A DNA stretch of 64,000 nt. Source: Ignavibacteriota bacterium (GTDB lineage Bacteria > Bacteroidota > Ignavibacteria > UBA10030 > CAVZMI01). The position numbers and the translations under genes were made by a program. The stretch is taken from positions 44,119-108,118 of the forward strand of contig CAWIHK010000006.1 of assembly GCA_963835935.1 (NCBI GenBank), in the 5' to 3' direction. Positions within the stretch are counted from its first letter, which is position 1. Each line of letters begins with the position of its first letter. Below the pieces are notes generated by a model that saw nothing but the letters and a program-made list of their open reading frames with translations, did not search any database and was not told where the DNA came from. Shown in pieces: positions 47,380 through 47,620 of the stretch.

Positions 47380-47502
47380 ATGAATAACTTTATGCTGGAA
47401 AGAATCTCGATGTGCGGAATGGGAGCAATGGCATTCTGTTGTTGTCGAATGCGATTCTTCGCAGCGTCGGCGGGTAAAAGTTGTTCATCAAATTATTTTT
47501 AA
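47380..47502 (+). CDS. Candidate Met/Cys-rich leader peptide (40 aa: MNNFMLERISMCGMGAMAFCCCRMRFFAASAGKSCSSNYF)
   Basis: 6 Met + 5 Cys codons in 40, clustered 'MCGMGAMAFCCCRM'; located ~190 nt upstream of metY, followed by terminator hairpin. Confidence 0.45.
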   Translation: MNNFMLERISMCGMGAMAFCCCRMRFFAASAGKSCSSNYF

Positions 47503-47582
47503 CAACACTATTTTGATGCGACATTCCCAAGACCAGACGTCGCGGCCAAGGGAATGAGGAAATGAGGCAAAACGATTTTTAA

Positions 47583-47620
47583 AAACCTCTTTCGGGAATT
47601 CCCGGGAGAGGTTTTTTCGT
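47583..47620 (+). terminator. Terminator/attenuator hairpin in the metY leader
   Basis: cctctttcgggaattcccgggagagg stem followed by TTTTTTCGTTTT; upstream segments (gggaatg, attccc) could form an alternative antiterminator. Confidence 0.5.

Follow-up and report, generated by a model that had tools for sequence, protein, structure and literature searches.

The classical leader-peptide attenuators are those of the trp, his, leu, thr, ilv and phe operons of Proteobacteria, for which Rfam holds models such as His_leader and Phe_leader, and a relay through several RNA segments is known from the his leader. The control of methionine (Met) and cysteine (Cys) biosynthesis is usually ascribed to S-adenosylmethionine (SAM) riboswitches, T-boxes and protein regulators such as MetJ, MetR, SahR and CymR, and RNA control of metY and cysK usually falls to SAM riboswitches (SAM-I/S-box, SAM-II, SAM-V and others) and Met or Cys T-boxes. 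Leader peptides with Cys codons have been described for the cys and cbs leaders of actinobacteria (PMC1262725), as polycysteine leaderless small open reading frames (ORFs) in mycobacteria (bioRxiv 10.1101/834739), and as the uORFC-8-2 motif upstream of cysS in Rhodobacterales (PMC8632094). Large comparative studies have also reported metY to be unregulated in some lineages (PMC4239095). Here we describe the leader of a metY-cysK operon in a 64,000-nucleotide (nt) stretch of an Ignavibacteriota bacterium genome (contig CAWIHK010000006.1, positions 44,119 to 108,118), which we call the window and whose own numbering we use. Judging from its sequence and that of its relatives, it is likely that this element is a ribosome-mediated leader-peptide transcription attenuator of metY-cysK, which probably reads the supply of charged transfer RNA (tRNA) for Cys and, in the genome of the window, that for Met. 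An earlier note, made from the letters of the window alone, had proposed such an attenuator, and its interpretation is now supported by the lack of a matching Rfam family, a conserved small ORF and parallel metY leaders in other phyla.

The proposal starts from a 40-codon ORF on the forward strand, as are the promoter, the terminator, metY and cysK (47380..47502; translation MNNFMLERISMCGMGAMAFCCCRMRFFAASAGKSCSSNYF, then a stop codon). It begins about 25 nt past the predicted transcription start and holds 6 Met and 5 Cys codons, a count that translation bears out as the earlier note had given it. Most of these codons lie in a cluster at codons 11-24 (47410..47451), M-C-G-M-G-A-M-A-F-C-C-C-R-M, which is the presumed zone of ribosome stalling. 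Among 1000 six-frame ORFs of at least 20 amino acids in the window, it ranks 1/1000 for Met plus Cys density, with 8 such residues in 14, compared with 6 and then 5 for the next ORFs, and the ATG triplets within it are distributed 6/0/0 over the three frames, all of them in frame 0. Its Shine-Dalgarno sequence is weak (GGA at -12 to -10).

About 80 nt past the stop codon of this ORF begins an intrinsic terminator (47581..47626), composed of a 16-base-pair (bp) stem (47581-47596 with 47601-47616), an AAUU loop and a U-tract at 47612-47617 and 47620-47623; a terminator scan likewise called a hairpin at 47581-47616 followed by TTTTTTCGTTTT. Its pairs have probabilities of 0.94-0.99 in full-length folds, its sequence is present only once in the window, and the fold of the leader is more stable than those of 200/200 shuffles (z = -3.35). 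The hairpin ends 70 nt before the metY start codon at 47691, so the strong hairpin, T-run and spacing given in the earlier note are all in place. Both downstream genes have also been confirmed with NCBIfam models: metY (47691..48989), which is the first gene and encodes O-acetylhomoserine sulfhydrylase, or homocysteine synthase (TIGR01326, 667.6 bits against a cut-off of 495), and cysK, which follows after 19 nt (49009..49923) and encodes cysteine synthase A (TIGR01139, 401.8 bits against a cut-off of 351). The former leads to homocysteine and the latter to cysteine. A Shine-Dalgarno sequence for metY, AGGAG, lies at 47674-47678, more than 55 nt past the terminator and outside the predicted structures.

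A consensus scan placed the promoter of the leader and operon at 47320..47348. It is of the sigma-70 type, with TTGACA (47320-47325) as the -35 element, a 17-nt spacer and TATACT (47343-47348) as the -10 element, which amounts to 11/12 consensus matches, and transcription is predicted to start near 47355. Because of the position of this promoter, the transcribed leader comprises about 335 nt and not the full 646-nt intergenic gap, which the earlier note had taken as a 650-nt leader. The same scan found no promoter of comparable strength between the terminator and metY. Thus, since the sole strong promoter lies upstream of the leader ORF, metY-cysK relies on read-through of the terminator.

In its general architecture, the locus resembles the classical attenuators, given that it combines a short ORF in the 5' leader, rich in codons for the products of its own pathway, with an intrinsic terminator before the first gene and with predicted alternative pairings around it. 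It differs from them in its codons, since Met and Cys are outside the classical list, and in its host, an Ignavibacteria-like member of the Bacteroidota. There is also no sequence relationship, as the match to His_leader (21.4 bits against a gathering score of 49) is driven by the terminator. With the known Cys leaders, it shares in-frame runs of Cys codons and a small upstream ORF controlling cysteine-related genes, and uORFC-8-2 also ends in an intrinsic terminator. Compared by description, not by sequence, the actinobacterial leaders differ in being leaderless and without an obvious terminator, and uORFC-8-2 differs in having two tandem Cys codons and in controlling a tRNA synthetase gene, not biosynthesis. 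Moreover, none of the known Cys leaders has Met codons or controls metY, and they belong to other phyla.

Like SAM riboswitches and T-boxes, the element occupies the 5' leader of metY or cysK and would have the control of an intrinsic terminator as its output, but the leader of the window has a conserved, translated-looking ORF and neither an aptamer nor a tRNA-binding Stem I. The earlier note had seen no S-box or SAM-II consensus elements here, which agrees with the scans: Rfam 15 gave no match in the leader at the gathering score, and a search at E<=10 over 47040-47720 returned only sub-threshold, terminator-driven matches, with no SAM class (SAM-I to SAM-VI, SAM/SAH) and no T-box among them. 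Besides His_leader, these matches included L10_leader, with 27.9 bits against a gathering score of 44. In six related loci, there was no Rfam match either, and none to the SAM or T-box models.

Further evidence on the coding nature of the leader comes from related bacteria. These were found through CysK, which is lineage-specific and has many matches of 79-86% identity in proteins named Ignavibacteriae or Bacteroidota, whose contigs were then fetched. Four distinct homologous leaders were obtained (L168, L170, L176 and L179), which together with the window make five sequences, and the CysK proteins of the leader-bearing relatives are 83-85% identical to that of the window. The gene downstream is cysK alone in L168 and in the GC-rich loci L170-L175, and metY-cysK in L176 and L179; the leader unit is always directly upstream of these genes and co-directional with them. 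In the alignment, both promoter hexamers keep their columns in all four homologues, and each locus, including that of the window, has one strong promoter, always upstream of the small ORF. A candidate second promoter in L168, with a spacer of 15 nt, was not called by the scan and was discarded.

In all five leaders, the start codon is conserved within the context (C)GATGAA/AATGAA, the frame that follows is open, and a run of Cys codons (TGY) is in frame with the start despite spacers of unequal length (5/5). This frame is always free of stops, which are usually present in the other two. There are 3 to 8 Cys codons per leader, in runs such as CCCRCCCRC, CCCRCCCR, CCC and CGCC, and the CCC-R of the window aligns with CCCRCCCR in L176 and L179 and with CCC in L168. 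Read from the conserved ATG, the peptides are MKNTLDVSQSQTSKPFARTAKSCCCRCCCRTQVRAAISDNGCSSASF in L179, MNINYSISSKSNLETAGHSSGAAGCCCRCCCRCFLQLHATILDNGNSSACSQ in L176, MKNSDSTFSIIFIEAIIAREFDRTAGRCCCRRLSQLHATMLDNRNSSAYSL in L168 and MKSRIPHIPVVAGKGRNVTPCARTACGCCHPRATPRNEGG in L170; their total length ranges from 40 to 52 amino acids with that of the window included, and their N-terminal parts are unrelated and of unequal length. From CCC onwards, the ORF of the window coincides with that of L179 in the number of codons, in frame and in the position of the stop.

At the nucleotide level, the conserved blocks are CGCAACG, GGAUAA, UUCAUCGGCC, UUGAGGGAA, GAUGAGG and the terminator, and the tail of the ORF also holds a conserved block. 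The terminator is the most conserved part of the leader and is near-invariant in all homologues (AACCUCUUYYGGAAAUUCCCGGRAGRGGUU). All blocks of this Ignavibacteria type of Cys leader can be aligned in the window, where a middle domain has been deleted. Thus, the start codon, open frame, in-frame Cys run and terminator are conserved in relatives, as an attenuator would lead one to expect, whereas the Met codons to which the earlier note had also drawn attention are not. A variable number of conserved regulatory codons, combined with an unconserved remainder and a conserved terminator, points to a leader peptide and not to a functional small protein, and this pattern is also hard to reconcile with a purely non-coding RNA.

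How the position of a ribosome in the ORF could be communicated to a terminator 80 nt away is suggested by a set of overlapping helices. The start of the ORF (AUGAAUAACUU, 47380..47390) pairs with 47478-47488 in the minimum free energy (MFE) fold, and this start:tail duplex (AUGAAUAACUU:AAGUUGUUCAU) has a predicted energy of -13.0 kcal/mol, a value reached by 2/300 shuffles. An equivalent helix, CCGAUGAA:UUCAUCGG, is present in L176, L168 and L179 (reached by 7, 5 and 0 of 300 shuffles, respectively) and absent in L170, and the helix is therefore significant in 4/5 leaders. Segment 1 of the candidate relay is the tail of the ORF (codons 27-40, 47459..47497), which includes 47478-47488 and provides the 5' side of a long, imperfect hairpin whose tip is the stop codon. 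A ribosome stalled at C22-M24 would have its leading edge where this strand starts. Its partner is segment 2 (47507..47545), and the 1:2 hairpin is predicted at -23.7 kcal/mol in a fold of 47456-47548; complementarity between the tail and the region just past the stop is found in all five leaders, with 15, 30, 4, 55 and 10 of 200 shuffles reaching the observed values. Segment 2 also contains a local helix, GCGAC/GUCGC (47518-22 with 47539-43), which RNAalifold found across the homologues.

Segment 3 (GGGAAUGAGGAAAUGAGG, 47550..47567) is the candidate 5' strand of the antiterminator. It can pair through GGGAAUG (47550-47556) with CAUUCCC (47522-47528) in segment 2, a hairpin that is present in the MFE fold, or with segment 4 (47586..47603), which is composed of CCUCUUUC of the 5' arm of the terminator and the apex sequence AUUCCC; segment 5 is the 3' arm. 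The 3:4 pairing comprises 14 bp (GGGAAU:AUUCCC, GAAA:UUUC and GAGG:CCUC), with a predicted energy of -16.5 to -18.3 kcal/mol that 2/300 shuffles reach, and an equivalent pairing is found in all homologues at -12.5 to -16.0 kcal/mol. The use of GGGAA, GAUGAGG and the terminator apex by this antiterminator in all leaders would explain their invariance. When segment 2 is unavailable, the antiterminator is predicted to last for 3-6 more nt of transcript growth in L179, L176 and L168. The earlier note had already seen that the CATTCCC and GGGAATG segments can pair with each other, and this part stands; its alternative, in which CATTCCC acts against the 5' arm of the terminator, is less plausible, and the most plausible partners of GGGAATG are CATTCCC and, alternatively, the ATTCCC of the terminator apex. 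The pairing of CATTCCC with the 5' arm was tried as an antiterminator and rejected, as it reaches only about -9 kcal/mol, is never populated in the folds and is not conserved, the equivalent sequence in the homologues having the same sense as the 5' arm.

Put together, these helices would work as a relay of five segments. When Met and Cys are ample, the ribosome would run through segment 1 to the stop codon, segment 2 would pair through CAUUCCC with the GGGAAUG of segment 3, the 4:5 terminator would form, and transcription would end at about 47617-47623. When Cys or Met is scarce, the ribosome would stall at codons 11-24 with its leading edge just before segment 1, so that the naked tail could pair with segment 2, with the stop codon at the apex of the hairpin. 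Segment 3, left free, would then form 14 bp with 47586-47603, a stretch running from the 5' arm of the terminator through its loop into the first bases of the 3' arm, and with 3:4 formed, RNA polymerase would read through into metY-cysK. If the leader were not translated at all, the start-codon region would pair with the tail, and the 2:3 and 4:5 helices would form, leading to termination. After transcription of the tail, the start:tail helix could also sequester the start codon, which would block re-initiation and favour termination in an untranslated leader. In contrast to classical attenuators, the stalling zone would lie upstream of segment 1 and not inside it, and one extra segment is needed because the ORF stops 80 nt from the terminator.

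Our confidence in this relay is lower than in the attenuator as such, and the same is true of the idea that Met is sensed alongside Cys in the window. Several observations weigh against the attenuator or against these parts of it. Unlike metY with its AGGAG, the leader ORF is not preceded by a good Shine-Dalgarno sequence. L170 has no start:tail helix, and its Cys frame ends 11 codons earlier. None of the four homologues shares the Met codons, not even the two that have metY under their control (internal Met codons number 5 in the window and 0-1 in the homologues), which means that the proposed sensing of Met draws on one sequence plus analogy. As for the folding, equilibrium models with a ribosome mask over each codon predict that the terminator always forms, and in truncated transcripts of the window, the modelled pairing of the 5' arm shows no clear dependence on the position of the ribosome. 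A predicted difference between transcripts with segment 2 free and blocked appears in the window at only 1/6 of the 3' ends tried (47610), and in L168, the 3:4 pairing is not significant in comparison with shuffles (64/300). The helices of the relay also have almost no support from covariation, because only five distinct sequences are available and their conserved blocks are mostly invariant. Masked folding is, however, a weak test, given that in a family of metY leaders from other phyla that we describe below, it detected the switch in one member (L013) but not in another (L003).

An important question is whether the same data could be explained without a ribosome that senses amino acids. Several of the conserved blocks listed above, including the terminator, are kept at the nucleotide and not at the peptide level; L168 and L176 contain an additional structured domain in the middle, including a hairpin that resembles a T-loop; L170 reads the conserved tail in a frame other than that of L168 and L176; and a ribosome-dependent switch is not cleanly seen in silico. 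All of this could suit a riboswitch of a kind not yet described, or an RNA recognised by a protein regulator of sulfur metabolism, controlling the same terminator while the small ORF is incidental. Nevertheless, we consider this unlikely. No Rfam family matches, all SAM classes and the T-box included, and ORF, Cys run and terminator are all retained in the window, although the middle domain is absent there. An incidental frame would not be expected to stay stop-free and to carry the TGY run in frame with a conserved ATG in 5/5 leaders with spacers of unequal length, nor would one expect every ATG triplet of the window ORF to be in frame. In addition, the Cys codons vary in number from 3 to 8, like the regulatory codons of known attenuators, and the overlapping alternative pairings of the proposed relay could themselves account for the conservation at the nucleotide level.

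Even if translated, the ORF need not encode a leader peptide, and it could be a genuine small gene whose Cys-rich product might be redox- or metal-active, with its own promoter and terminator and only by chance a neighbour of cysK or metY. The strength of both signals would agree with this, as would the distance between the terminator and the next gene, about 460 nt upstream of metY in L179 and about 200 nt upstream of cysK in L168. We regard this explanation as highly improbable, because the peptide is unconserved beyond the Cys run and varies between 40 and 52 amino acids, its conserved C-terminal motif coincides with the RNA helix that pairs with the start codon, and the unit always adjoins cysK or metY-cysK in the same direction, with no good promoter between them and, in L170, with only about 45 nt between the terminator and the start of cysK. 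It is also conceivable that stalling acts on the translation of the downstream gene or on the access of Rho, the hairpin being merely a leaky terminator. The small ORFs with Cys runs in mycobacteria regulate without an obvious intrinsic terminator (PMC1262725; bioRxiv 10.1101/834739), and the link between ribosome position and terminator is weak in silico in the window. Against such a translational or Rho-dependent attenuator, which seems to us quite improbable, stand a canonical 16-bp hairpin containing G-C pairs and followed by a U-tract, better conserved in every homologue than the rest of the leader, and the joint conservation of the terminator apex with the upstream GGGAA and GAGG blocks, as would be expected of an antiterminator/terminator pair. 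The AGGAG of metY (47674-47678) is more than 55 nt past the terminator and outside the predicted structures. Control of transcription through the leader peptide thus appears to be the best account of the locus.

If so, the Met codons of the window call for an explanation, which may lie in the history of metY. The MetY of the window is only 61% identical to the MetY of its Ignavibacteria-like relatives, which are 82% identical to each other, and is 78-86% identical to those of Thermodesulfobacteriota, archaea and many other lineages. From these comparisons, it appears that a foreign metY was acquired horizontally and replaced the native one behind the native Cys leader. The leader itself appears to descend from a Cys-only leader common to the Ignavibacteria-like relatives, with Met codons added in the lineage that replaced metY. 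In the window ORF, the stretch that carries these codons, M-C-G-M-G-A-M-A-F, precedes C-C-C-R, and the latter would be the ancestral part of the cluster.

The pairing of Met with Cys codons is not confined to this locus. Taking at least 5 Met or Cys in 14 residues as the definition of a Met/Cys-rich small ORF, we found such ORFs in the sense direction upstream of metY in 11/76 GTDB loci from other phyla, compared with 0/76 in the antisense direction and 4/380 in shuffles, and in about 37/80 further metagenomic metY loci. Most of these leaders belong to one large and apparently undescribed family, with peptides ending in SMMMCCMSMC(F/C)HLGRGGPPM before the stop codon, which is found in Thermodesulfobacteriota, Acidobacteriota, Lentisphaerota-like genomes, other metagenome-assembled genomes and metagenomes (L001-L004, L011-L013, L027 and L089-L149, L095 being one example). 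Its ORFs lie 100-250 nt upstream of metY, for instance at L003:2754-2873 and L013:2761-2892, and it has no Rfam match. Across 31 aligned members, the ORF ends in codons (UUGGYAGGGGAGG) that can pair with the 5' arm of the terminator, with a mean of -14.8 kcal/mol compared with -20.2 kcal/mol for the terminator itself, and there is three-way covariation (GGCAG/CUGCC, GGUAG/CUACC and CCGGAC/GACCGG). The Met codons AUGAUGAUG can in turn pair with CAUCAUCAU just past the stop codon, and a ribosome at the stop would mask the antiterminator because its strand lies in the last 8 codons. In L013, folding with a masked ribosome predicts that sequestration of the 5' arm rises exactly when the A site is on the Met and Cys codons. 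By these models, the family is a textbook attenuator with Met/Cys specificity.

This family and the leader of the window probably share their regulatory logic. In both, a Met- and Cys-rich small ORF is followed by an intrinsic terminator and then by metY, often as metY-cysK, behind a promoter of the TTGACA type, and the MetY of the window belongs to the same clade of highly similar MetY proteins (78-85% identity). The two are, however, without nucleotide similarity in nhmmer comparisons, and the family has a design of four segments, whereas the window ORF ends 80 nt before its terminator and lacks the GRGGPPM tail. A short stretch of the window, TCGATGTGCGGAATG at 47407-47421 (S-M-C-G-M), resembles TCGATGATGATGTGCGGCATG in L001 (S-M-M-M-C-G-M) except for a 6-nt gap, which could be due to convergence on Met and Cys codons or could be a trace of recombination with the leader of the donor.

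Other designs have also been found. In the metY leader of L009, from Desantisbacteria (about 2700-2910), the encoded peptide ends in ESCMCCGIAMCNCLRIMGIAEVLS, and its R-I-M-G codons (GAUAAUGGGC) complement 10 nt of the 5' arm of the terminator (GCCCAUUAUC) without a mismatch, which places the antiterminator inside the ORF; in this model, L009 looks like another independent design of Met/Cys attenuator. A third, unrelated type of Cys leader lies upstream of cysE-cysK at L183:2885-2995 (MMVHINNARNAGSVTVAAVCFCCCCHRRITSRVIKK) and L184:164-268 (MQINIIRKARHESQAVLGFCCRCSKRIASEVLKR), with peptides containing CFCCCCHRR and FCCRCSKR, respectively, and with a different terminator of its own (GGCTCGGCGATGCTGAGCC followed by a T-run); the CysK proteins of these loci are 79-80% identical to that of the window. 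Given that several types of leader precede metY or cysK, it seems that leader peptides with Met/Cys or Cys codons evolved repeatedly. On balance, we lean towards the broader view that Met together with Cys is an unrecognised and widespread specificity of attenuation, with at least three origins upstream of metY or cysK (the Ignavibacteria, MMMCCM and L009 types), that in these lineages the charging of tRNAs is the main sensor of sulfur amino acids instead of SAM riboswitches, T-boxes or protein repressors, and that the native Cys leader of the window was retuned with Met codons after a foreign metY had been captured.

Ribosome-mediated attenuation and Cys leaders are already known, and what is unfamiliar here is the Met/Cys specificity, the phyla involved and the breadth of independent families. 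The earlier note had regarded an attenuator with Met and Cys codons as uncommon, which remains true insofar as no Met or Met/Cys leader peptide was found in the literature, but leaders with Cys codons have in fact been described (PMC1262725, PMC8632094 and bioRxiv 10.1101/834739). Full-text searches and comparative studies such as PMC545781, PMC2965389, PMC5343134 and PMC4239095 showed no Met or Met/Cys leader peptide, no such element upstream of metY and no Cys leaders in Ignavibacteria, in a literature that left out much of what is available by subscription.

If our interpretation is correct, one of the oldest known regulatory mechanisms would gain a new amino-acid specificity, and for metY and cysK a regulator would be at hand, both in Ignavibacteria-like bacteria and in numerous uncultured anaerobes. 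Annotators could then use a simple signature, namely a terminator preceded by a small ORF that has a Met/Cys run. The locus would also provide a case of leader retuning, in which Met codons were apparently added to a Cys-only leader once a horizontally acquired metY came under its control. Since these leader elements are small and self-contained, they are suited to reporter fusions.

Some further observations concern the homologous leaders. In L176 and L168, AAGGAG is followed after 5 nt by an ATG that is either in frame or overlapping. In L176, the ATG led by AAGGAG is in frame with the leader ORF, while in L168 (3478-3501), it begins a 6-codon mini-ORF (ATGCTCCCCCAAAACCGATGA) whose stop overlaps the conserved start of the leader (ATGA), an arrangement that suggests translational coupling. 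Bases of this AAGGAG region are able to form a 5' hairpin, GGAGCA...UGCUCC. The middle domain that L168 and L176 have in addition, and that the window lacks, includes a hairpin (L168:3680-3705 and L176:2266-2290), UCGAGGGUUCA(A/C)(G/A)CCCGA, with a loop like the T-loop of tRNAs. The distance from the terminator to the next gene is variable, at about 460 nt to metY in L179, 200 nt to cysK in L168 and 45 nt to the cysK start in L170; the gap in L179 (2170-2631) corresponds to a stretch of a sister contig (L180:2278-2526) in which an ORF of 82 amino acids is called, and it may represent an insertion or a second regulatory layer.

Other routes to relatives were less productive. Searches with MetY in GTDB genomes and in the protein database led to archaeal-like loci (86% identity for the best matches) with another gene context and no similar leader, MetY being a misleading query because it is extremely conserved and mobile; an exact look-up of the window MetY gave only a copy of the same locus. 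Synteny around UvrC was of no use either, since the closest UvrC proteins (69-71% identity, named Bacteroidota or Ignavibacteria) have other genes downstream. The terminator is not a dispersed repeat, as a stricter pattern of it matched only L081 and L176 among 185 loci. The two loci with the most similar MetY (86%), L082 (2727-2879) and L085 (2479-2631), have an archaeal-like context with metY-metX-metW, and in them a 50-amino-acid ORF beginning MIDRMEEIRSQSRIRSCCGMKDEDKND is called just upstream of metY, which has an S-C-C-G-M cluster and no obvious terminator. Finally, upstream of the leader in the window lies a gene of the LacI/RbsR family (46214-47044) whose profile alignment begins only at position 56, so that the N-terminal helix-turn-helix is missing and the sugar-binding domain is kept; no frameshifted DNA-binding domain is present in the 190 nt upstream of it, which are AT-rich and have stops in every frame.

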